From an uncultured Candidatus Saccharibacteria bacterium (GTDB taxonomy: Bacteria > Patescibacteriota > Minisyncoccia > Phycocordibacterales > UBA9973), in NCBI GenBank assembly GCA_964412965.1, contig CAYPQU010000002.1, forward strand, positions 26,004-90,003: a DNA stretch of 64,000 bases, in the 5' to 3' direction. Below the pieces are notes generated by a model. The model did not search any database and was not told the origin of the DNA. It saw only the letters and a list, made by a program, of their open reading frames with translations. The translations under genes and the position numbers were made by a program. Below, one piece after another: positions 2,725 through 64,000 of this stretch (its first letter is position 1; each line of letters starts with the position of its first letter).

Positions 2725-4062
2725 ATGAAAAAAATTTTAATGGAAGATATAAAAATTAATAAATCTTTTAGACAAACATCAGTTAGAGAAAAAAAAACAC
2801 CAGGAAAAAAAGAGTTGCCAAAAGAACCTATACAAAAAGTAAAGAGAAGAAACTCTGATGATTCTGATTATGTCCACTACTCAAAAAGAATGAGTTTAAC
2901 TCCAAGATCGTCTGACAAAAGACCAGTGAGGGGTTTTCTAAGAATTATATTTTTATTTTCTCTGGTTGGTGGTATAGCCTATTGGACAGGGGTATTTTTC
3001 AATAGTGCTTACGTAACCATTACGGCTAAACATCAAAACATTGAATATAAATCCAAGGTTTTTAACGCTGACAGAAAGAATGCTGCCAATGTCGTTGATT
3101 TTGAAATAATGATAGAGTCAGAAAAGAAATTAAAAAATTATATTCTAACAGAGAACAAGGAGGTATCTAGTAAGGCAACAGGAACTATCATTCTTTATAA
3201 CGAGTTTAGTACTAAACCAGAAAAATTATCTCAAGGAACATATGTTAGTGACCAAGATGGTAAAACATATCGATTGAATAATACCGTTACAATTCCGGGA
3301 TATAAATTAGATAAACAAAAGAAGATACCGGGCCAGGTAGAAGTTAACATAACTTCTTTTTTGGCTGGTGAAAACTATAATGGAACCTCTGAAAAATTTA
3401 CAGTTAATTCATTTAAAGGTACTACGAAATACAGCAAAATATATGGAAAGCTGAAGACAGAGTTGGTAGGAGGATTGCAAGGTATTGTTTATTATATAAG
3501 CGAGGAAGATAAAGCCAAGATCCAAAACATAGCTGAATCATCACTAAGAGAAGAGTTATACAGTAAACTAAAAGCACTTTTACCTTCCGGATATATTTTA
3601 TACCCCGAAGCTATTAAATTCAGTTATTTAATAGATGAAAACATTTTGTCTGAGACGGCAGAAGCTAAAATACCAATAGAAGGCAAGATTTCAGCTATTC
3701 TTTTGAAAGAAGATTCGTTAATAAAAAATGTTATTAGGGTGTCATTGCCAGAAGCAGATAAAAACGAAATTCCTGAAATAGTAATTAACAATATAAAAAA
3801 TCTTAAATTTAATTTTGTAACAGAAACAATAATTGATAAAGACACAGAAAACTTCCAATTTACTTTAACTGGTAATCTGGAAGCAGTTTGGAATCCTAAT
3901 AAGGAAATAATAAAAAGTAAACTAGCCGGTCTTCACAAAGATATGGTCTTGTCAGTTTTTAGAGAAAATAAGGGTATTACTAAATCTATGGTTAAGATTT
4001 TTCCACCTTGGAGCAAGTATATTCCTAAAAATCCATCTAAAATAAATATAAAAATTCAATAA
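2725..4062 (+). CDS. hypothetical bitopic membrane protein (basic N-terminus, one TM, ~350-aa extracytoplasmic domain)
   Basis: ORF directly after the FtsA/PilM-like gene with a 3-nt gap. Single hydrophobic helix FLRIIFLFSLVGGIAYWTGVFF. Confidence 0.3.
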   Translation: MKKILMEDIKINKSFRQTSVREKKTPGKKELPKEPIQKVKRRNSDDSDYVHYSKRMSLTPRSSDKRPVRGFLRIIFLFSLVGGIAYWTGVFFNSAYVTITAKHQNIEYKSKVFNADRKNAANVVDFEIMIESEKKLKNYILTENKEVSSKATGTIILYNEFSTKPEKLSQGTYVSDQDGKTYRLNNTVTIPGYKLDKQKKIPGQVEVNITSFLAGENYNGTSEKFTVNSFKGTTKYSKIYGKLKTELVGGLQGIVYYISEEDKAKIQNIAESSLREELYSKLKALLPSGYILYPEAIKFSYLIDENILSETAEAKIPIEGKISAILLKEDSLIKNVIRVSLPEADKNEIPEIVINNIKNLKFNFVTETIIDKDTENFQFTLTGNLEAVWNPNKEIIKSKLAGLHKDMVLSVFRENKGITKSMVKIFPPWSKYIPKNPSKINIKIQ

Positions 4063-4430: not shown

Positions 4431-4541
4431 ATGAAAATAAAAGCAGCAGTAAAAAAAATTTGTAAGGACTGTAAAATGGTAAAGCGAAGTGGTCATCTTC
4501 GTATTATTTGTTCTAACCCTAAGCATAAGCAAAAACAATAA
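4431..4541 (+). CDS. rpmJ: 50S ribosomal protein L36 (not in the supplied ORF track; 36 aa)
   Basis: atg aaa ata aaa gca gca gta... translates to [36 protein letters not shown], the L36 Zn-ribbon signature with the CxxC...C..H pattern. Confidence 0.9.
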
Positions 4542-4549
4542 TTTTAGAT

Positions 4550-4930
4550 ATGAGAATACTAGGTATAACTATTCCGAATAATAAACATCTAGACGTTGGT
4601 CTAACATGCCTTTATGGTATTGGTATTTCAAGAGCTAGAGAAATATTAAAAGAAGCCGGAGTTGATAAAGACAGAAAGGCAGATTCTTTGTCAGTAGAAG
4701 AAGAAAATGCAATTAGAAAGATAATAGAATCTCTTACAATAGAGGGAACTCTTAAAAGAGAAATTGCTGCTAACATAAAAAGACTAAAAGATATCAAAGC
4801 ATATAGGGGGTTGAGACATATGCACAAATTACCAGCTAAGGGACAAAGAACTAAAACAAATTCTAGAACTGTAAGAGGTAACGTCAGAAAGACAATGGGA
4901 AGCGGTAGGAGAAAAGCAGAAAAAACTTAG
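4550..4930 (+). CDS. rpsM: 30S ribosomal protein S13
   Basis: MRILGI.IP..K...GLT.IYGIG...A..I and C-terminal basic tail GQRTKTNSRT. Confidence 0.9.
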   Translation: MRILGITIPNNKHLDVGLTCLYGIGISRAREILKEAGVDKDRKADSLSVEEENAIRKIIESLTIEGTLKREIAANIKRLKDIKAYRGLRHMHKLPAKGQRTKTNSRTVRGNVRKTMGSGRRKAEKT

Positions 4931-13588: not shown

Positions 13589-14968
13589 TTATATTTTAGT
13601 TATTTTATAGCCATCACCGGTGTCTTTTATTTCATAACCTAAATCTTTTATTTTATTCCTTAGCTCATCACTTTTTATCCAGTCTTTATTATCTCGAGCT
13701 AGCTTTCTTTCTTCTGCCATTTTGATTATTTCTTCAGGTGTTTCTTCTTGTTCTATTTTGTCTAAACCAAAACCAAAAACTCTATCGAAATCTAAAATAG
13801 TTGCTAGTTTGTCTTCATTGCTTACTCGTTTATCTTTTACTAAATCCCATAGAATAGACAAGGCTTTTGGACTTTCTAAATTATTATCCATAGCTTCAAT
13901 AAATTTATTTTTATATTCTTCGTTTATTTTTCCTTTTATATTACCTAAAGAAACAATAAAATCTCTCAGTCTAATGAGTGCGGTTTGGGTGCTGTGAACT
14001 GCTTCTTTGGTAAAATTAACTCGAGTAGTATAGCTAGAACTATATAACCACATTCTAAAGGCAACAGGATCAATTCCCATTTTTATCAAATCTTCTAAAA
14101 TATAAAAATTACCTAAAGATTTACTCATTTTTTGACCATCAACAAGTAAATGTTCGTTGTGAATAAAGTATTTAGCAAAGTCTCCACCTAGAGAACACTT
14201 AGATTGAGCAATTTCGTTTTCGTGATGGGGAAAGATCAGATCTACACCCCCTGTATGAATATCAAAAGTTTCTCCTAAATTTTTTACGCTCATAGCAGAA
14301 CACTCTATGTGCCACCCAGGACGACCCTTTTCTATTTCACTTGATTTACCCAAAATTTCTTCAGGATTCCAAAAAACATCACCGTCTTCTTCGCTCCATT
14401 TTTTCCAGAGAGCAAAATCTTCGGCATTTTCTTTGTCATACTCATCTTTACTTAGACGATTATCTGCATTCTCTTTTAAGTCAGATATTTTAAAGTTGGA
14501 AAGCTTACCGTAGTCATTAAATTTTCTAATATCAAAATAAATAGAACCGTCCTTTGCTTTATACGCAAAACCTTTTACTAAGAGCTCTTCTATGATTAAA
14601 AGCATTTCCTTAATATAGTCAGTGGCTTTAGTGTATTTTGTGGTAGGTAATATGTTTAATAAATCTCTTTCGCTAAAAAATAGGGAAGTGTAATATTCCG
14701 TGAAATCTTTTAGGGATAGCCCTTTTGATTGAGAGGTTTTTATAGTTTTATCATCTACATCAGTAATGTTCATTATGTGTTTAACCTTAAAACCTTTGTA
14801 TTCTAAATATCTTCTTAGAAGATCAGAGAAAACAAAAGCCCTCCAATTGCCAATGTGAATTTTGTTATATACAGTAGGTCCACAAGAATAGATACCAACC
14901 TCATCGTTTTTTAGTGGTACGAATTCTTCTTTATGTCTTTTAAGTGTATTAAATAAAACTAAGCTCAT
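13589..14968 (-). CDS. cysS: cysteinyl-tRNA synthetase
   Basis: HIGN (CGPTVYNKIHIGN) and KMSKS (KMSKSLGN) class-I motifs, and a CysRS-like zinc-site region. Confidence 0.9.
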   Translation of the reverse strand: MSLVLFNTLKRHKEEFVPLKNDEVGIYSCGPTVYNKIHIGNWRAFVFSDLLRRYLEYKGFKVKHIMNITDVDDKTIKTSQSKGLSLKDFTEYYTSLFFSERDLLNILPTTKYTKATDYIKEMLLIIEELLVKGFAYKAKDGSIYFDIRKFNDYGKLSNFKISDLKENADNRLSKDEYDKENAEDFALWKKWSEEDGDVFWNPEEILGKSSEIEKGRPGWHIECSAMSVKNLGETFDIHTGGVDLIFPHHENEIAQSKCSLGGDFAKYFIHNEHLLVDGQKMSKSLGNFYILEDLIKMGIDPVAFRMWLYSSSYTTRVNFTKEAVHSTQTALIRLRDFIVSLGNIKGKINEEYKNKFIEAMDNNLESPKALSILWDLVKDKRVSNEDKLATILDFDRVFGFGLDKIEQEETPEEIIKMAEERKLARDNKDWIKSDELRNKIKDLGYEIKDTGDGYKITKI

Positions 14969-15597
14969 AATATGATTGTTAAAATTAGTAAAATTAATAA
15001 AATCAAATTTAATATAAATAATATCTTGTATTTTTTTTCTAAACTTAAATTTTTTCTTTTAAGAAAACTATTGTTTATGTCTTTTAATAAAATCTTATCG
15101 TGCATTTCGGTCAACATCTTTCTTACAAGATTAGCAAAAAGTAATTCTTGATTATTGATTTTTGATTCAGATTCTATCACCGTGTCTAATTCTAGTTCGC
15201 TAGAAAATTGTTCTATAGAACTGAGAGGTTGATCATGTATTGTTATGACAAAATTTTGGTTTTTAATAAAGACCATTTTTGACGAACTTTCCGTTGGCTC
15301 TCTTTGTGAAAATTTAATAATACAATAGAGCGTATCATTCTCAATGAAGGTGTTGTGATCTTTAGAAGGACTGTGTATCTCTTGTTTTATATCTTCAGGT
15401 ATCTTGTATTCATCTAAAATATAAACAACCTCTTCTTCTTGAGGCGAGGTTAAATCTATCCAAACGATCCCTTTATTTTTATACTTAGATATCACAAAGT
15501 TATTATAACAACAAGAGAGGAGCTTAAGCAAATGAATACTAATTCGTTTGCTTAGTGTCCGAACGCTGTTGTTATATAGTACTCTATATAACAACAA
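14965..15597 (-). CDS. hypothetical protein with a C-terminal TM helix and weak CorA-N-terminal-like similarity; start uncertain
   Basis: KGIVWIDLTSPQEEE...YKIPEDIKQEI resembles the CorA N-terminus, but no GMN motif is present. The first 31 codons, including the TTG start used by the ORF track, lie inside the 83-bp tandem repeat. A GTG at 15495 is an alternative start. Confidence 0.3.
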   Translation of the reverse strand: MLLYRVLYNNSVRTLSKRISIHLLKLLSCCYNNFVISKYKNKGIVWIDLTSPQEEEVVYILDEYKIPEDIKQEIHSPSKDHNTFIENDTLYCIIKFSQREPTESSSKMVFIKNQNFVITIHDQPLSSIEQFSSELELDTVIESESKINNQELLFANLVRKMLTEMHDKILLKDINNSFLKRKNLSLEKKYKILFILNLILLILLILTIIL

Positions 15598-15737
15598 GAG
15601 AGGAGCTTAAGCAAATGAATACTAATTCGTTTGCTTAGTGTCCGAACGCTGTTGTTATATAGTACTCTATATAACAACAAGAGAGGAGCTTAAGCAAATG
15701 AATACTAATTCGTTCGCTTAGTGTCCGAATGCTGTAT
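15505..15737. repeat. 83-bp tandem direct repeat, about 2.8 copies (units start at 15505, 15588, 15671)
   Basis: The unit ataacaacaagagaggagcttaagcaaatgaatactaattcgtttgcttagtgtccgaacgctgttgttatatagtactctat is repeated near-identically. Each unit carries inverted repeats (ataacaaca/tgttgttat) and, on the plus strand, GAGAGGAGC-N8-ATG plus 7 codons plus TAG. Confidence 0.8.
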
Positions 15738-15830
15738 TTGCCTCCAGTATTGCCTAAAAACTTGCTTTTTCTAGCCTTTTTGTGTATTATAAGTTTTACC
15801 TAGGTTTTAGACCCCTGGGGAGTTAAATTT

Positions 15831-16193: not shown

Positions 16194-16226
16194 AGCCCCC
16201 CCTAATAAGCTTGGGGGGTTTTATTA
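16194..16226. terminator. bidirectional intrinsic terminator between rplU (+) and recR (-); 7-8 bp G/C stem
   Basis: aaagccccccctaataagcttggggggttttatt, seen directly. Confidence 0.65.
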
Positions 16227-16841
16227 TTGTCTATTTTTTAGGGCATTCTTGATAGTTTCGCTATCTGAGTATTCCAGCTCAGTTCCCGTTGATAATCCAC
16301 GGCCAAGCGAAACTATTTTTATATTATATTTATTAATCAAGGCAGATAGTTTTTCTCGTAAAAACAAATCAGTATGTTCACCCTGAGGGTTAATCGACAA
16401 AGCCAAGATTATTTCTTTTAGAAATCCTTGTTTTGCCCTTTCTTCTACTATGTTCAACAATTCTTTAACTCTCAAAAAACTTAAAACCTCTTTGTTAATT
16501 ATAGGGGCTAAACCACCCAGTATAAAATAGTAGCCGTTGTAAACTTTACTTCTTTTAATGTTTTCGTAATCAGAATCTTTTTCTATAATCAGAAGACAAC
16601 TTTTGTCTGTTTTGGGATTTTTACAATTTTCACACAAATCTGGTTTTTGTGATTGAAAAAATAAAAAACACGAAGGGCATTGATGAATATTATTTTTTAA
16701 ATTCAAAATATTTTTACCCAACTCAGAGACGTATGAGGAATTTTTGTGTAAAAGAAAATATACAAAACGCTTGGCTTGTCGTTCTCCTATGCCAGGAAAT
16801 TCTTTAAAGTATTGTGATAATTTTTCTATTGAATCTTCCAT
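16224..16841 (-). CDS. recR: recombination protein RecR
   Basis: N-terminal HhH (FKEFPGIGERQAKRF), C4 zinc finger (CPSC...CENC) and a Toprim region. Confidence 0.85.
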   Translation of the reverse strand: MEDSIEKLSQYFKEFPGIGERQAKRFVYFLLHKNSSYVSELGKNILNLKNNIHQCPSCFLFFQSQKPDLCENCKNPKTDKSCLLIIEKDSDYENIKRSKVYNGYYFILGGLAPIINKEVLSFLRVKELLNIVEERAKQGFLKEIILALSINPQGEHTDLFLREKLSALINKYNIKIVSLGRGLSTGTELEYSDSETIKNALKNRQ

Positions 16842-16961
16842 CCCGTTAGAAGCAGGTCTCGGTCGTTGTCATTTACAACAAACCAATATTTGCAAATTAA
16901 TCTAATAATGTTTAAATAATTTTATATCTCTTTATCCCGTGACCGAGGCTTCTAACGGGAT
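16840..16961. repeat. copy A of a ~120-nt structured element family (terminal inverted repeats, two internal hairpins, conserved 24-nt core)
   Basis: About 85% identical to 63071-63189. Terminal IR atcccgttagaagc/gcttctaacgggat; hairpins gttgt-cattt-acaac and atcccgt...acgggat. Abuts the recR start codon. Confidence 0.55.
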
Positions 16962-16974
16962 CCGTTTCAATTGT

Positions 16975-33619: not shown

Positions 33620-33687
33620 GTTTGCTTTCTCTCGGACAAAAAATAAAAAACCTTTCGGCTTTTATTTTTGTGCCCGAGGTGGGAACG
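33620..33687. repeat. direct duplicate (~67 nt, ~95% identical) of the tRNA-Leu 3' end (15 nt) plus its downstream terminator flank
   Basis: gtttgctttctctcggacaaaaa(a)taaaaa(a/g)cctttcggcttttatttttgtgcccgaggtgggaa occurs at 33620-33687 and again at 33780-33845, the second copy being the true tRNA 3' end. Confidence 0.7.
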
Positions 33688-33829
33688 CTTCGCTTATCGC
33701 CGACTACATCGGCAGGTACTTTTCCACCTCGCTTCGCTCGTACGGAAAAGTCTTTCGATTCCCGCACAAAAGCAAAGCAGTTTGCTTTCTCTCGGACAAA
33801 AATAAAAAGCCTTTCGGCTTTTATTTTTG

Positions 33830-33911
33830 TGCCCGAGGTGGGAATCGAACCCACATCCCTTGCGAGACACGATTTTAAGTCGTGCGCGTATACCTATTCC
33901 GCCACTCGGGC
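33830..33911 (-). tRNA. tRNA-Leu (anticodon TAA)
   Basis: The minus strand GCCCGAGTGGCGGAATAGGTATACGCGCACGACTTAAAATCGTGTCTCGCAAGGGATGTGGGTTCGATTCCCACCTCGGGCA folds as a cloverleaf with a long variable arm and anticodon loop CUUAAAA. CCA is not encoded. A small bidirectional hairpin aagcc-gaaa-ggctt plus a T-run follows. Confidence 0.85.
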
Positions 33912-34140: not shown

Positions 34141-35556
34141 ATGTCAAAGGAATACTACACTACAATAGGACTCGAAATACACGCAGAATTAAAGACTAAT
34201 TCTAAGATGTTTTGCGGTTGCAAAAACAACCCCGATGAAAAAACTCCAAATACTAACATCTGTCCTGTTTGTATGGCTCAACCTGGAACTTTACCTGTTA
34301 TAAATGCCGAAGCTGTTAAAAGTGTAGTCAAAGTTGGACTAGCTCTTGGAGCAAAAATTGCAGATTTTACAGAATTTGATCGTAAAAATTATTTTTATCC
34401 AGATATTCCAAAATCTTATCAGATTTCCCAATATAAATATCCGATTGTTTCTGGCGGGGAATTAAATGGGGTAAAAATTACTCGAGTACACCTTGAAGAA
34501 GACACAGCCACCTCAAAACACGATCGAGGAGATTTTTCTCTTATCGATTTTAATCGTGCCGGGGTTCCTTTAATGGAATTAGTAACAGAACCCGTCATTC
34601 ATAGCGCCAAAGAAGCTGGAGATTTTGGAAGAGAGCTACAATTACTTCTTCGATACTTAGGTGTTTCAGAGGCTAATATGGAAAAAGGTCAAATGAGAGT
34701 TGAATTAAATATTTCCGTGTCTGATGTTCCAAATAAATTTGGAACTAAGGTTGAAGTTAAAAATATCAACTCTTTTAAAGCCGTAGAAAAAGCAGCTGAG
34801 TACGAAACCAAGAGAATGATCGAGCTAATAGAATCTGGGGGAAAAAATAAAATAGTTCAAGAAACAAGAGGCTGGGACGAAACTAAGCAAGCTACGTTTT
34901 CTCAAAGAGTAAAAGAAAATGCAAATGATTATAGATATTTTCCAGATCCCGACTTACCTAAACTTTTCTTGTCAGAAATATTTAATTTAGAAGAACTGAG
35001 AAAAAACCTTCCTGAACTTCCTCAAGCTAAAAGAATTCGCTATGGAAATGATTATGGAATAAAAGAAGAAGATATTGAAAGTTATATTATTGATCAGGAG
35101 TTAGGAAACTGGTTTGAAAAAGTTTGTTCAATTCTTAAAGATAAAGAGAAAATTAAAACCGCTTCTAACTATATAACTTCTGATTTATTGGGTCTTAAAA
35201 AAATAAACCCTGATATAAAAATCCCTAGTGAAAATAATTTTGCTGAATTAATCCAAATGATCTCTGACAATAAAATTTCTTCAAGGGCTGCAAAAGACAT
35301 ACTGGCAATGATCGCCACAGAAGACGCGTCACCAATGAAAATAGCTGAAGAAAAAGATTTGCTTCAAAAAAATGACGAGGGGGCACTGAAGGAAATCATC
35401 CAAAAAATAATTGATAATAACAAAGAAGTGGTCGAAACTTACAAAGCAGGAAAAGAAAATGCAATCATGTCTTTGGTCGGACAAGTCATGAAGGAAACAA
35501 AAGGTAGCGCTAACCCTCAATTGGCCTTAAAATTATTAAAAGAATTATTATCATAA
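34141..35556 (+). CDS. gatB: Asp-tRNA(Asn)/Glu-tRNA(Gln) amidotransferase subunit B
   Basis: YYTTIGLEIHAELKTNSKMFCGC.....NTNICPVC...PGTLPV and a GatB/YqeY C-terminal domain. A TGATATAAT promoter-like box lies at 34120-34131. Confidence 0.9.
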   Translation: MSKEYYTTIGLEIHAELKTNSKMFCGCKNNPDEKTPNTNICPVCMAQPGTLPVINAEAVKSVVKVGLALGAKIADFTEFDRKNYFYPDIPKSYQISQYKYPIVSGGELNGVKITRVHLEEDTATSKHDRGDFSLIDFNRAGVPLMELVTEPVIHSAKEAGDFGRELQLLLRYLGVSEANMEKGQMRVELNISVSDVPNKFGTKVEVKNINSFKAVEKAAEYETKRMIELIESGGKNKIVQETRGWDETKQATFSQRVKENANDYRYFPDPDLPKLFLSEIFNLEELRKNLPELPQAKRIRYGNDYGIKEEDIESYIIDQELGNWFEKVCSILKDKEKIKTASNYITSDLLGLKKINPDIKIPSENNFAELIQMISDNKISSRAAKDILAMIATEDASPMKIAEEKDLLQKNDEGALKEIIQKIIDNNKEVVETYKAGKENAIMSLVGQVMKETKGSANPQLALKLLKELLS

Positions 35557-36260
35557 ATTTTAGTAGTCCGACTACTAAAATTTAAAATTCTACTTCTTCT
35601 TTTCTCTTTATGGTTTCAAGCCAAAGTGATTTTGCTGTTTTATAATAATCCTCTTTGTTTTTAAAATTACTTAAAACTATTGTTTTGTTACATATTCCCA
35701 CTGAGTCATTAGTATATTCGCACAGACTAGATTTACTAAAATCAGAAATAGTTTTAAGATTTTTATCTAAGTTATTAAAATTAACATATGCACTTAATTG
35801 TATTAAATATCTTTCGTCTTCTATTTGTTTTGATTTAAATTTTCCTTGAAAAAGCACACCAGATCTATCGTATTTTTCATTAAAATATCTAGTATAGCCA
35901 CCTATTCTCTGCATAAATTTTTCTATTCCATTATCTACAAGAGGGGATAAAATAAGATGAAAATGATTCTTGTTAATACAATATGCTATTATGGCTACTA
36001 AAGGTTTTTTAGTAGTCCGACTACTAAATTTTAACTTTTTCTTAAGATGTTGCTGAAAAATACTTTGTATTGGTTCTACTGTATTAAATTCTAATAAACT
36101 CAGAAAAAATCTATTGAGATCTTCTTTATCTATAATGATATCTCTTTTATCAGAACCTCTGTTATAAATATGATAATATTGTCCTATTTCAAATATATGA
36201 TTTCTCATATATATAATCATACCATACTTTTAAATTTTAGTAGTCGGACTACTAAAATTA
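35555..36260 (-). mobile_element. REPtron-like unit: an IS200/RAYT-type Y1 transposase gene flanked by inverted copies of a 23-nt REP-like palindrome
   Basis: ttttagtagtccgactactaaaa at 35558-35580, the inverted version ttttagtagtcggactactaaaa at 36235-36257, and a third same-orientation copy embedded in the ORF at 36008-36028. Confidence 0.6.
35582..36220 (-). CDS. IS200/IS605-family HUH (Y1) transposase-like protein, REP-associated tyrosine transposase (RAYT) type
   Basis: N-terminal YYHIYNRGSDKRDIIIDKEDLNRFFLSLLEF (RAYT YH.xNRG motif); HUH motif NKNHFHLILSP; conserved Tyr-containing C-terminal helix (RYLIQLSAYVNFN). Confidence 0.65.
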   Translation of the reverse strand: MIIYMRNHIFEIGQYYHIYNRGSDKRDIIIDKEDLNRFFLSLLEFNTVEPIQSIFQQHLKKKLKFSSRTTKKPLVAIIAYCINKNHFHLILSPLVDNGIEKFMQRIGGYTRYFNEKYDRSGVLFQGKFKSKQIEDERYLIQLSAYVNFNNLDKNLKTISDFSKSSLCEYTNDSVGICNKTIVLSNFKNKEDYYKTAKSLWLETIKRKEEVEF

Positions 36261-48372: not shown

Positions 48373-48405
48373 AACCACATATTTAAAGTATGTGGTTTTT
48401 TGTTT
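48373..48405 (+). terminator. intrinsic terminator after the RRM gene (accacata...tatgtggt plus T-run)
   Basis: Seen directly. Confidence 0.7.
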
Positions 48406-48457
48406 GCAAAATAATACTTTTTTTGTTATATTTTTAGAGTTAAATAATAAATTTAAT

Positions 48458-48491
48458 GCGTGTGTAGTTCAGTGGTAGAACGCTGTTCTGA
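48458..48491 (+). pseudogene. 5'-half copy of tRNA-Ile (acceptor 5' strand through anticodon-loop start), one SNP relative to the full gene
   Basis: GCGTGTGTAGTTCAGTGGTAGAACGCTGTTCTGA is identical to positions 1-34 of the full tRNA at 48552, except C31T. Confidence 0.5.
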
Positions 48492-48551
48492 GTTTTTATA
48501 AAAATAAATGGTTCATTCGTTAAAAATGAGAAAATAAATAGTTTCTTGAGT

Positions 48552-48623
48552 GCGTGTGTAGTTCAGTGGTAGAACGCTGTCCTGATAAGACAGAGGTCGA
48601 AGGTCCGATTCCTTCCACACGCA
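48552..48623 (+). tRNA. tRNA-Ile (anticodon GAT)
   Basis: GCGTGTGTAGTTCAGTGGTAGAACGCTGTCCTGATAAGACAGAGGTCGAAGGTCCGATTCCTTCCACACGCA folds as a cloverleaf. Anticodon loop CUGAUAA and variable loop AGGUC match bacterial tRNA-Ile(GAU). The T-loop TCCGATT has an unusual C55. Discriminator A; no CCA. Confidence 0.8.
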
Positions 48624-48667
48624 CTGAGGACATTATTTATTTTTCATTTTAACTCACTGCCATTTAA

Positions 48668-48706
48668 AAGACAGAGGTCGAAGGTCCGATTCCTTCCACA
48701 TGCACA
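48668..48706 (+). pseudogene. 3'-half copy of tRNA-Ile (anticodon 3' stem through acceptor 3' end), one SNP
   Basis: AAGACAGAGGTCGAAGGTCCGATTCCTTCCACATGCAC is identical to the 3' half of the full tRNA except C70T. It overlaps the first ATG of the downstream ORF. Confidence 0.5.
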
Positions 48707-61583: not shown

Positions 61584-62816
61584 TTAATTATTTTTTTCAA
61601 CAAGTAAAGCTTGTGGGGTGTATTTGTTACTCGGGTCCCAAAGCATCCATGAAGTTAGATTATTATCGTAGGTGGCCTGTATTTGCTCTCTAACCAATTC
61701 TTTGGTGTAAGTGGCCCCCATGTCAAAATCTTGTAGCCAGGGCCGAATTTTAGCGATATTGAAGCCCTGTGCCTGCGTTTTGGAGATAGCCCCCTTGATA
61801 GACCTATCGATAACCTCGTAAGGATGAGCTGCGGGGTTAGTAAAATTAGAATAACCAGACGGATAGTGAGACGGATAAACCATCGGAGCTAGGTAGTCAA
61901 AATAAGGAAGTGCTTTTTCCCAAACTTGACCTATACCCATATCATCAACAGCTTCTGTTGTCAGGCCAAAAAGGTCTGCAGATAAAGGTATGTTATTTTC
62001 TTTTTTAAGTTCTTTTGAAAAATATTTGAAAAATTCCTCGATATTATCTGCGCGAGTTTTTCCATTTTTTAAATTATAATTTATATCTTTCATGTTACCA
62101 TCAGAAGGATATCGAATATAATCTAAATTTATTTCATCAAAGCCTAATTCGTAAGATTTCAAGGCTATTTTAAGAGTATAATCATGAACTTCTTTTTTAG
62201 TAGGGTCTAAAAAAGATAAACCTTTTCTGTCTTTCCAAACTCCTCCATCACTAAGCCTTTTTACAGCCCATTCAGGTTTAATCTTTGTCATATAAGGATC
62301 TTGAAAAACAGATATTCTTCCTATAACATAAATATTTTTTGAATGAAGAATATCTATAATAGTCTTAATCCCTTTAATTCTATTTTCCACACTTCCATAT
62401 TTTTTTATTTCAGGATCATCAATATCAAAACTCACTCTTCCGGTGGAATCTTTAATATCTATAACTACTGCATTTAGCTCTGTCTCTTCAATCATTTTAA
62501 CTAAAGAATTTCTAAAATCTCTAGATCCCGCAACCCAAGCAGACATATAAATAGCCTTTAGGGGGTCAGGAGTTTTTATGTGCGTAACTACAATATTATC
62601 TTCTAGGTTGGGTGGTTTAGAATCAACCACTATCTTTTTTTCTTCTTCAATTAATTTTTCTTCTTCTTTGATTTCTAAACCAGATGATTCACTATAGTAT
62701 TCTATTTTATTACTAAGCGACGGAGAGTATGCTATTACTATATAGGCAATTAAAAAAACACACGCAATTATCAATAAGTATAATGGGGTAGATTTCTTTG
62801 TGTGTTTTTTGTCCAT
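61584..62816 (-). CDS. membrane-anchored putative glycoside-hydrolase-like TIM-barrel protein (DUF4015/GHL10-like)
   Basis: N-terminal TM; KAIYMSAWVAGS....NAVVIDIKDSTGRV and DEINLDYIRYP resemble the family annotated as a putative glycosyl hydrolase domain. From memory, not verified. Confidence 0.45.
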   Translation of the reverse strand: MDKKHTKKSTPLYLLIIACVFLIAYIVIAYSPSLSNKIEYYSESSGLEIKEEEKLIEEEKKIVVDSKPPNLEDNIVVTHIKTPDPLKAIYMSAWVAGSRDFRNSLVKMIEETELNAVVIDIKDSTGRVSFDIDDPEIKKYGSVENRIKGIKTIIDILHSKNIYVIGRISVFQDPYMTKIKPEWAVKRLSDGGVWKDRKGLSFLDPTKKEVHDYTLKIALKSYELGFDEINLDYIRYPSDGNMKDINYNLKNGKTRADNIEEFFKYFSKELKKENNIPLSADLFGLTTEAVDDMGIGQVWEKALPYFDYLAPMVYPSHYPSGYSNFTNPAAHPYEVIDRSIKGAISKTQAQGFNIAKIRPWLQDFDMGATYTKELVREQIQATYDNNLTSWMLWDPSNKYTPQALLVEKNN

Positions 62817-62829
62817 TTTTTATTTTAAT

Positions 62830-63072
62830 TTAAATTTTAATTTCGGGGTTCCTTCTGGTCTCATTCTCTTCTATATTGTCTACAAAATTTTGATCCTGTT
62901 TCATTATCTTTGATAATCTAGCTTTTGTTTCTAAATAAAACAAATACGCAAGATAAATAATAGCGAGTCCGGACACAAAAAAGAGTACTTTTCGCCAGTT
63001 ATTTGGAAATCCTAAATAAGGCAAGATTATCACCCATAAACCAATTAAAAATAATGTTTTTTCTTTTCTCAT
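62830..63072 (-). CDS. hypothetical small membrane protein (80 aa, 2 TM)
   Basis: Two hydrophobic helices. Its start codon is immediately preceded by element B and, ~120 nt further upstream, a near-consensus promoter. Confidence 0.35.
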   Translation of the reverse strand: MRKEKTLFLIGLWVIILPYLGFPNNWRKVLFFVSGLAIIYLAYLFYLETKARLSKIMKQDQNFVDNIEENETRRNPEIKI

Positions 63073-63189
63073 CCAGTTAGAAGCAGGTCGCGGTCGTTAT
63101 CATTTATAACTAACCCATCTCTGCAAATTAATATAATAATGTTTTGAAATTTATTTTTCTTGTCCCGTAATCGCGGCTCCTAACGGGAC
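63071..63189. repeat. copy B of the ~120-nt structured element family; forms the entire 5' leader of the downstream minus-strand small gene
   Basis: About 85% identical to 16840-16961, with compensatory substitutions in all three helices. Hairpins gttat-cattt-ataac and gtcccgt...acgggac. Confidence 0.55.
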
Positions 63190-63199
63190 TCATTTTTAT

Positions 63200-63227
63200 A
63201 TTATACTCCGCAATGAGCTTTTTTCAA
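63200..63227 (-). promoter_or_regulatory. near-consensus sigma70 promoter on the minus strand (TTGAAA-16-TATAAT); predicted TSS ~63192, 2-3 nt before the element B hairpin
   Basis: Minus strand reads ttgaaaaaagctcattgcggagtataat, sitting between the RT stop and element B. Confidence 0.45.
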
Positions 63228-63245
63228 AATTAAATCAAACAAGAC

Positions 63246-64000
63246 TTAAAACCAATTATCATCACTTGTTATTTTTCTCCTCAAATTATAACTATTTGCA
63301 TGCTCGAAATGTCCAAAATAAGATCTTATAACAGGCAGAAACTTTATAGAGTATAAGCCATCTTCTTTGTTTTTATTTTTATACATTTTGTCTTTAAACC
63401 TCCGAACCACCTTTCTTCTTACTAGAGTATGAGTCGGTTTAATATAATAACCAAGAAAGTCTATTCCATGATTAACCTGCCTTAGAAATATCTTATCGGG
63501 GGCCAATTTTAAATTTAACTTCTGATTAAGAAATAGATCAATTTTTTTTATCGTTTCTTCTAATCTTTCTTTGTCTTCATCTAGGATAATAAAATCATCA
63601 ACATATCTAAGATAACGATAAAATTTTAATTCATTTTTTATATAATGATCCAATTTATCTAAATAAATATTTGCAAAAAATTGGCTAGTTAAATTCCCTA
63701 TTGGTAAACCTTTATTTCTATCTCCATAAAACAAAGATTTGTGCTTAGGGACAACGCCTCTTGTATTATTCGCCCCTTTGAAAACATAATTAGATGTTGG
63801 ATCATGAAAAATAATCATTTTTGTTAGCCACAGTATTTCGTCTTTCCACGATTTATCTTTGTCACTTCTCACAATAATCATTTTCATTTCTTCGTATAGA
63901 ATATTTTTGTCTATATTTCTGAAAAATCCCTTGATATCCATCTTTAAATAATACAATCTTCTACCATCCTTTCCTCCTCTTGATATATGATATCTTAATT
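63246..64000 (-). CDS. reverse transcriptase, DGR-type motif set; C-terminal ~250 aa, with the 5' end beyond the window
   Basis: The frame is open to the window edge. RT motif 1 LKMDIKGFFRNID, motif 4 GLPIGNLTSQFFANIYL (the IGxxxSQ variant typical of diversity-generating-retroelement RTs rather than QGxxxSP), motif 5 YLRYVDDFIIL, motifs 6/7 (LNLKLAPDK, GIDFLGYYI), and a short thumb. Confidence 0.75.
   Translation of the reverse strand, partial: LRYHISRGGKDGRRLYYLKMDIKGFFRNIDKNILYEEMKMIIVRSDKDKSWKDEILWLTKMIIFHDPTSNYVFKGANNTRGVVPKHKSLFYGDRNKGLPIGNLTSQFFANIYLDKLDHYIKNELKFYRYLRYVDDFIILDEDKERLEETIKKIDLFLNQKLNLKLAPDKIFLRQVNHGIDFLGYYIKPTHTLVRRKVVRRFKDKMYKNKNKEDGLYSIKFLPVIRSYFGHFEHANSYNLRRKITSDDNWF

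Follow-up and report, generated by a model that had tools for sequence, protein, structure and literature searches.

Results

An element between a promoter and a start codon

The window analysed here is a stretch of 64,000 nucleotides (nt) of contig CAYPQU010000002.1, from an uncultured Candidatus Saccharibacteria bacterium. Near one end of it, on the minus strand, a reverse-transcriptase (RT) gene is followed by a promoter, by a short palindromic element that we call element B, and by the gene for a small membrane protein of 80 amino acids (aa) (Table 1). This work deals with element B, of which the window holds two copies. Copy 1 occupies the entire gap from the promoter, which is conserved, to the start codon of the 80-aa gene. 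The initial annotation of this DNA had described it as a transcribed 5' leader, driven on the minus strand by a TTGAAA-16-TATAAT promoter with a transcription start site (TSS) at about 63192, and opening with a gtcccgt..acgggac hairpin. The anatomy supports this description. The promoter is present (63227-63200) and scores 11 of 12 against the consensus, the TSS is predicted one base away from the claimed position, and the hairpin lies at 63189-63162, followed by an AT-rich stretch. Promoter-like sites across the region are not more frequent than expected by chance (5 found vs 4.7 expected); this one is kept at the same place in the orthologous loci L001, L254, L257 and L255. A consensus scan found no terminator on either strand, in agreement with the earlier remark that the element lacks its own terminator on the minus strand. 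Rfam 15 gave only two transfer RNAs (tRNAs) at gathering score in the window, and nothing credible at E up to 10 over 62700-63400. A tRNA-like identity for the 3' arm was considered and rejected: ARAGORN reports just the two real tRNAs.

The element had also been claimed to belong to a repeated family shared with recR, and a second copy, 82% identical to the first, is indeed found between dnaB and recR. The dnaB stop codon lies 13 nt upstream, at the foot of the 5' arm of copy 2. The small hairpin of this copy is GTTGT..ACAAC, with both sides altered relative to copy 1.

Table 1. Features of the two element B loci and of the neighbouring RT gene (window coordinates; ORF, open reading frame)
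Feature	Position	Strand	Remark
-35 hexamer TTGAAA	63222-63227	-	Hexamer kept in orthologous loci L001, L254 and L257
-10 hexamer TATAAT	63200-63205	-	6 nt 5' of the duplicated ATG, i.e. leaderless spacing
Upstream target-site duplication ATGAG	63189-63193	-	Predicted TSS at 63193; compare the single ATGAG of empty sites
Element B copy 1, TCCCG...CTGG, miniature inverted-repeat element	63073-63188	-	116 nt; 96.6% identical to the L255/L256 element
5' arm (G)TCCCGTTAGGAGCCGCGATT	63169-63189	-	Partner: 3' arm, or local ACGGGAC at 63162-63168
Small hairpin GTTAT-AAATG-ATAAC adjoining the 3' arm	63096-63110	-	Loop holds the ATG of the mini-ORF
Mini-ORF ATG ATA ACG ACC GCG ACC TGC TTC TAA (MITTATCF*), 8 codons	63077-63103	-	Stop 4 nt 5' of the main ATG
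3' arm GACCGCG-ACCT-GCTTCTAACTGGAT, 4-nt bulge	63071-63095	-	Takes in the A and U of the start codon
Downstream target-site duplication ATGAG, first bases of the 80-aa gene	63068-63072	-	
80-aa small membrane-protein gene	62830-63072	-	Paceibacterota gene order rsmI, 80-aa gene, DUF4015
Reverse-transcriptase gene, N-terminus outside the window	63246-64000	-	Separate lineage-specific insertion, not part of the element
Element B copy 2, between dnaB and recR	16842-16960	-	Found in all 7 contigs encoding an identical RecR
Decayed upstream duplication ACGGA (vs ATGGA at the recR start)	16961-16965	-	
recR	16224-16841	-	ATG falls within the 3' arm of copy 2

A family located at start codons of Patescibacteria

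We scanned genome contigs (one genome per species) with a 20-mer from the 3' arm and, independently, metagenome contigs with the 5' arm. Element B belongs to a family with more than 230 copies in Patescibacteria across the two public collections, a lower bound to which the genome contigs contribute at least 118 stretches. The statements on taxonomy and position that follow hold among the matches listed. In the genome contigs, all recognisable members lie in metagenome-assembled genomes (MAGs) of Patescibacteria (labelled Paceibacteria, Nomura-, Taylor-, Sung-, Zambryski-, Campbell-, Buchanan-, Jorgensen- and Tagabacteria), except for a short contig labelled Woesearchaeota (L087). Several MAGs contain at least 3-4 copies. 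Viral contigs gave a single match, uninformative because it sits at a contig end.

The arms TCCCGTTAGAAGCCGCGGTC and GACCGCGACCTGCTTCTAACGGG are nearly invariant across the family; the first of them, absent from the 3'-arm query, is at least 90% invariant in 110 aligned elements. Measuring 21 and 25 nt, the latter including a 4-nt bulge, the arms form the terminal inverted repeats of an element of 113-130 nt whose sole ORFs have 6-29 codons, with no transposase ORF among them. The interior is variable and depends on the lineage, and no conserved core was seen outside the helices in the family alignment. The termini (T)CCCGTTAG...CTAACGGG(A) define a superfamily: other families at the same loci have only the 8-nt termini CCCGTTAG...CTAACGGG in common with element B, with arms that are different yet mutually complementary, and abut a gene start in 29 of 40 cases.

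Copies unlinked to start codons would have counted against the leader of the initial annotation; the family proved overwhelmingly start-codon-linked. Of 228 bulged arms, 219 abut a gene start; of 214 non-bulged arms, one does. In the 5'-arm scan, 112 of the 113 evaluable matches have a 3' arm no more than 260 nt away, followed by ATG in 111 cases and by GTG in one. The genes downstream are real, long and varied housekeeping ORFs (ssb, murG, secA, secY, recR, dnaA, topA, mreB, tRNA synthetases, ribosomal proteins and pilins, among others), and we found no functionally coherent set in the downstream ORFs of family members.

Two variants of the termini were noted along the way. At least 24 of 112 elements of the metagenome loci (L133-L252) carry a 3' terminus with one extra A, CTTCTAAACGGG, which places the UAA 5, not 4, nt before the start codon. 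Locus L019 (+ strand as oriented, ~3110-3381) contains two tandem units of ~134 nt, each ending in CACTAACGGG and then ATG, with no recognisable 5' terminus; they may be a derivative of the superfamily.

Target-site duplications and empty sites

In ~78% of elements the 5' flank is ATGNN, placed directly before the T that opens the arm. Of 135 such flanks, 123 have an NN identical to bases 4-5 of the gene that follows, whereas permutation predicts 43 ± 4.5. Repeat length ranges from 3 to 7 nt, with one length dominating, and the spectrum of duplicated sequences consists mostly of second codons starting with A or G, as in ATGAA, ATGGA and ATGAG. Genes starting with GTG fit a model that delimits the element as (T/C)CCCG...CGGG(A/G), with a TGNN duplication and with the element contributing the initial base of the regenerated start codon.

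Occupancy of the 80-aa gene is patchy among relatives. L254, whose gene is 94% identical to that of the window, reads TTGAAA-17-TATAAT-acaaaa-ATGAGAAAAG, and L257, with a 67% identical gene, has the same arrangement before ATGAGAAAAG; both sites are empty and leaderless, with a single ATGAG. L255/L256, with 77% identity in the gene and 67% in the next one, is occupied: TATAAT-aaaaaa-ATGAG[TCCCG...CGGG]ATGAGAAAAG. The window site has the same architecture (TATAAT-N6-ATGAG[element]ATGAGAAAAG). Hence a lineage 94% identical is empty and one 77% identical is occupied. The elements of the window and L255/L256 share 96.6% identity (98.6% in the interior), compared to just 77% for the adjoining gene. 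An element so much more alike than the genes flanking it must be much younger than the split of the hosts, or must have moved between hosts. Taken together, the empty sites, the duplication and the recent spread point to a recent insertion that generated a target-site duplication. Additional pairs of empty and occupied sites at other genes, one of them operon-internal, show the same footprint, and one interior type occurs at three different genes.

Among contigs encoding an 80-aa protein identical to that of the window, L004 is occupied and L001, L002, L003, L005 and L006 carry tataaTAACGGGATGAG. Compared over the interval 63068-63205 of the window, this allele has the element deleted save for its last 7 bases, and the 6-nt spacing from the -10 box to the ATG is restored. 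We considered whether the L001-type allele could be a pristine empty site and rejected this, since TAACGGG is retained and the sequence is that of the deletion product tataa^[...]^taacggg; judging from this junction, L001 is an imprecise deletion derivative. Both alleles are present in samples ERR1193289 and SRR11845627 and in the Hainich H41/H51 series.

Tandem copies are found too: L062 (~4452-4700) holds the array ATGAA-element-ATGAA-element-ATGAA-gene, and a tandem is also present in L215. Decayed copies also occur in the family. More complex arrangements were observed in L062, L131, L215, L147, L174, L015 and L030, comprising tandem pairs that share ATGNN, nesting in the arm of another element at the ACCT bulge, or an extra GC-rich hairpin at that point.

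Predicted fold and open frame of the leader

The minimum free energy fold of both copies is a long closing helix of 14 + 7 base pairs (bp), with an ACCU bulge on the 3' strand. It reaches -26.7 kcal/mol in copy 1 (z = -1.96, i.e. ~-2.0) and -42.5 kcal/mol in copy 2 (z = -6.1). For the start codon, the predicted equilibrium pairing probabilities of A and U are 0.93 and 0.87 in copy 1, and 0.98 and 0.93 in copy 2. Sequestration of the AUG by a terminal helix, as proposed initially, is therefore borne out by prediction (0.87-0.98), but the partner had been overlooked: the 3' terminal segment pairs with the 5' strand of that same 5' hairpin. Because this strand pairs in both structures, the hairpin and the closing helix are mutually exclusive. 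In stepwise folding of the growing RNA, the local hairpin forms first and is replaced by the closing helix once the 3' arm exists. Covariation is restricted to the arms.

One reading frame of the element is kept open. The frame that closes at a UAA inside the 3' arm, 4-5 nt 5' of the main ATG, has a median open length of 26.5 and 23 codons in two independent samples, compared to 5-12 in the other frames, and ATG-started ORFs of at least 15 codons, mostly 20-26, are found in 58 of 116 and 39 of 108 elements. An upstream ORF is thus maintained and ends beside the main start codon, as in systems of leader-ORF coupling, and an open frame stopping 4 nt before the ATG suggests that expression might be coupled through it. 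Two other readings of the frame were discarded. The constant part of a would-be conserved leader peptide is just the arm-encoded ..TATCF, and periodicity is weak in the 24-codon subfamily. The other was a single long ORF between the duplicated 5' ATG and the UAA, but the two share a frame no more often than by chance (32 of 89 elements), and only 17 elements keep the ORF continuous.

How the host initiates translation matters for this arrangement. We inspected the 55 window ORFs that reach 120 aa, and all of them lack a Shine-Dalgarno-like motif at -16..-4. A TATAAT-like box precedes the ATG of many by 6-8 nt, and the remainder show A-rich upstream sequences or overlapping stop and start codons. 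Such gene starts make it appear that the host relies on leaderless and Shine-Dalgarno-independent initiation. Loss of the anti-Shine-Dalgarno motif is documented for a subgroup of Parcubacteria (PMC9297842). Within the element B family, the spacing between the -10 hexamer and the 5' ATG peaks at 6 nt, suggesting that a leaderless start is kept by the duplicated ATG.

Nature of the element

We conclude, with a probability of roughly 75%, that element B is a non-autonomous miniature inverted-repeat mobile element that inserts at start codons, duplicates ATGNN and masks the real AUG in the messenger RNA (mRNA). It shows the traits of miniature inverted-repeat transposable elements: it is short and devoid of a transposase ORF, has terminal inverted repeats and a target-site duplication, and occurs in dispersed copies with presence/absence differences.

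Several observations weigh against this conclusion. A search of 1.7 Mb of loci for inverted repeats paired at distances of 300-5000 nt gave no autonomous, transposase-bearing copy, so transposition is deduced from its footprints only. Classical DDE transposition rarely has an orientation that is almost absolute, or a target as asymmetric as this one, in which one end of the duplication is an ATG. On the RNA side, the fold of copy 1 is only modestly more stable than that of shuffled sequence, as its z value indicates. Complementary arms are also the signature of terminal inverted repeats, and covariation is hence no proof of a selected RNA structure; in a tally of arm pair types and 3'-arm variants, G-U-type substitutions are about as common as A-C-type ones, so there is no strand preference. 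The small hairpin beside the 3' arm is only about twofold enriched, and only in the short-ORF subclass, and we rejected it as a family-wide feature. Finally, about half of the elements lack a long internal ORF (that of the window copies has 8 codons), and this ORF shows only weak three-base periodicity, as tested in the 24-codon subfamily.

A vertically inherited cis-regulatory RNA of a regulon (a riboswitch, a thermosensor or a protein-binding leader), in which the flanking ATGNN is a functional part of the RNA, would also be found always in sense orientation and right at start codons. The extreme conservation of the arms, the bistable fold of the window subfamily, alternating between local hairpin and closing helix, the frame kept open, and the occupation of orthologous ssb, murG and secA in several genomes are all in line with such an RNA. 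We nonetheless find it quite unlikely. Close relatives are empty and a distant one is occupied, by an element far more similar than its flanks, and the repeat changes from gene to gene in step with bases 4-5 of the gene itself. No function unites the genes downstream, the interior varies with the lineage and hence lacks a conserved ligand-type core, and other families share only the 8-nt termini. There is no match in Rfam even at E up to 10, and copies can be tandem, nested or decayed. Of the initial suggestion that recR and the small gene share a regulatory leader, the sharing stands; a simple leader does not, since what they share is probably a mobile element with duplications, found before hundreds of unrelated housekeeping genes.

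The element might also have spread without any transposase, through microhomology template switching or short-patch recombination after DNA uptake, between start codons sharing ATGNN, with the palindrome stalling replication. Start-codon specificity, fixed orientation, the lack of an autonomous copy and the 3-7 nt repeat length would then all be accounted for, and the duplicated ATGAA, ATGGA and ATGAG look common among window gene starts too (uncounted). A comparison of ATGNN sharing between donors and recipients had only 3 usable pairs. The single dominant repeat length, on the other hand, fits a fixed staggered cut, and 8-nt termini kept across families with different arms resemble the recognition sites of an enzyme. 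Overall we regard spread of this kind as very unlikely.

The third candidate concerns the neighbouring RT. The element had been placed directly downstream of an RT of the type found in diversity-generating retroelements (DGRs), raising the question of an RT-associated noncoding RNA or landing site; we also considered a template belonging to the retroelement. The adjacency is real, copy 1 starting 57 nt past the RT stop codon (63246). The DGR type could not be verified: the RT matches RVT_1 and falls below every curated subfamily cut-off, and its motif IGNLTSQ is one that we take to be DGR-like. An RT gene separating rsmI from the 80-aa gene's promoter is peculiar to the window lineage (also in L004), and in relatives rsmI is directly upstream. 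A tblastn search of 869 kb of element loci found RT homologues within ~8 kb in 2 of 118 other loci, neither adjacent to the element: in L028 the homologue (61% identical) lies downstream of an element-led gene, and in L033 it lies 450 nt upstream of the element. With no RT homologue found in the other 116 loci, relatives carrying the element at the 80-aa gene with rsmI upstream and no RT, copy 2 sitting between dnaB and recR, a promoter intervening between RT and element, no template/variable repeat pair near the L028 RT, and differences between copies 1 and 2 that involve all bases and are not adenine-specific as in such a pair, physical linkage to the RT is in effect refuted and an origin from the retroelement has next to no probability.

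Other repeats in the window

The window contains further repeats. A tandem array at 15504-15752 consists of three 83-nt units, two of them identical and the third 82% identical. The units hold the inverted repeats TATAACAACA..TGTTGTTATA and AAGCAAATGAA..TTCGTTTGCTT, have no Rfam match, and overlap the 5' end of a CorA-like ORF (14965-15597); the called CorA has 210 aa here vs 176 aa in the relatives L008/L009. Near-identical duplicated pieces lie beside tRNA-Leu and tRNA-Ile (33639-33685 / 33798-33844 and 48399-48705). Partial 3' halves of tRNAs are among them (97-98% identity), and the pieces may have been left behind by integration events at tRNA genes. A perfect palindrome, TTTTAGTAGTCCGACTACTAAAA, is present three times (35554-35582, 36003-36031 and 36231-36259), two copies flanking and one inside a 213-aa gene (35581-36220). 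These palindromes resemble a small family of repeated hairpins, or terminators acting in both directions.

Discussion

Palindromic repeats that are co-transcribed with genes are known from several bacteria, such as Correia/NEMIS in Neisseria, ERIC/IRU in enterobacteria, RUP/BOX in pneumococcus and bcr1 in Bacillus cereus. Element B resembles Correia, ERIC, RUP and bcr1 in its size class (~100-150 bp), terminal inverted repeats, lack of a transposase ORF, many dispersed copies and flanking target-site duplications; those repeats are, in addition, transcribed into mRNA as long hairpins able to alter expression. Correia-type elements, however, use short common targets (TA in the case of Correia), in either orientation and anywhere in intergenic DNA. 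The element B family is found at a start codon in more than 90% of cases, in a single orientation, with the start codon regenerated by the duplication and an ORF built in, and in this it differs from Correia, ERIC, RUP and the Rickettsia palindromic elements (RPE). With RPE it has in common being a small palindromic mobile element of reduced genomes, tolerated because gene function is kept. RPE insert in frame within coding sequences and are translated, whereas element B lies between two copies of the start codon, outside the main ORF. The IS1380 family, as described in ISfinder, has ends starting with CC and 4-5 bp target-site duplications, as in element B; this is a lead only, and no related transposase or full-length copy was found.

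Other parallels come from translation. T4 gene 60 and the byps of Magnusiomyces mitochondria are compact structured inserts between identical take-off and landing triplets, and the byps triplets derive from a duplication made by a mobile palindrome. In element B matched codons flank a structured gap as well, with ATGNN on both sides, which is equally an insertion footprint. Unlike in those systems, it is the start codon that is repeated, and the length of the insert, ~113-120 nt, exceeds known bypass gaps. Ordinary initiation or reinitiation at the second AUG would be simpler than hopping. The predicted fold also recalls hok mRNA, the MS2 coat-replicase region and upstream-ORF coupling, where the initiation region is paired to a 5' segment far away until ribosome traffic on that segment, or a short ORF ending beside the start codon, opens it. 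Those arrangements are single and gene-specific, whereas with element B the device travels on a mobile element and has been copied to hundreds of genes that are unrelated.

We propose the following course of events. The element would enter the first bases of an ORF in a fixed orientation, duplicating ATGNN (or TGNN, the start codon then taking its first base from the element). In the case of the 80-aa gene, the landing site would have been +1 to +5 of a leaderless unit, and the old promoter would now yield AUGAG, the element, and AUGAG plus the gene. An excised circular form, if produced, would carry the junction CTAACGGG-ATGNN-TCCCGTTAG. In the RNA of the window subfamily, the local 5' hairpin would form first, followed by the 21-bp arm helix with its ACCU bulge, pairing the A and U of the start codon. 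In a host without Shine-Dalgarno motifs, initiation at an AUG covered by a 21-bp helix should depend on ribosomes opening that helix. They might do so in three ways: by loading at the duplicated 5'-terminal AUG, at the foot of the 5' arm; in operon-internal copies like that of recR, by terminating at the upstream gene; or by translating the small ORF of the element, whose UAA always precedes the main AUG by 4-5 nt, and being passed on through reinitiation. The duplicated AUG, or the dnaB stop, at the foot of the arm and a frame left open up to the UAA favour ribosome-dependent unmasking and termination-reinitiation. Transcription from 63193, the effect on translation and the mechanism of coupling are what we infer from this architecture. 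Ribosome-dependent unmasking would render the insertion tolerable, and may couple expression to translational capacity.

The occupancy of start codons, above 90%, calls for an explanation of its own, as by rough estimate neither selection alone nor a preference for ATG alone suffices. A bolder version of the model, which we deem unlikely, is that the machinery truly recognises translation starts, both leaderless and operon-internal, and sets the orientation, and that the duplicated AUG is functional, with ribosomes shunting or hopping across the base of the helix to the downstream AUG. If this were true, target choice would proceed through start-site recognition, a mode known for no transposon, and AUG-to-AUG transfer would let a selfish element sit at the starts of essential genes without silencing them.

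Searching the literature by topic and by sequence string, we found no description of the element, and this start-codon-targeting mobile superfamily of Patescibacteria appears to be undescribed. Nor did we find an earlier description of insertion specificity for start codons with fixed orientation, which poses a mechanistic question. The suspicion of a retroelement-linked RNA is removed. The nearly invariant 20-mers provide an easy metagenome marker for these lineages, and the gain and loss of copies a marker at strain level. Hundreds of essential genes in uncultured Patescibacteria devoid of Shine-Dalgarno motifs would bear a mobile leader of ~120 nt that hides their start codon, with a bearing on translation initiation, gene calling and expression modelling in these bacteria.

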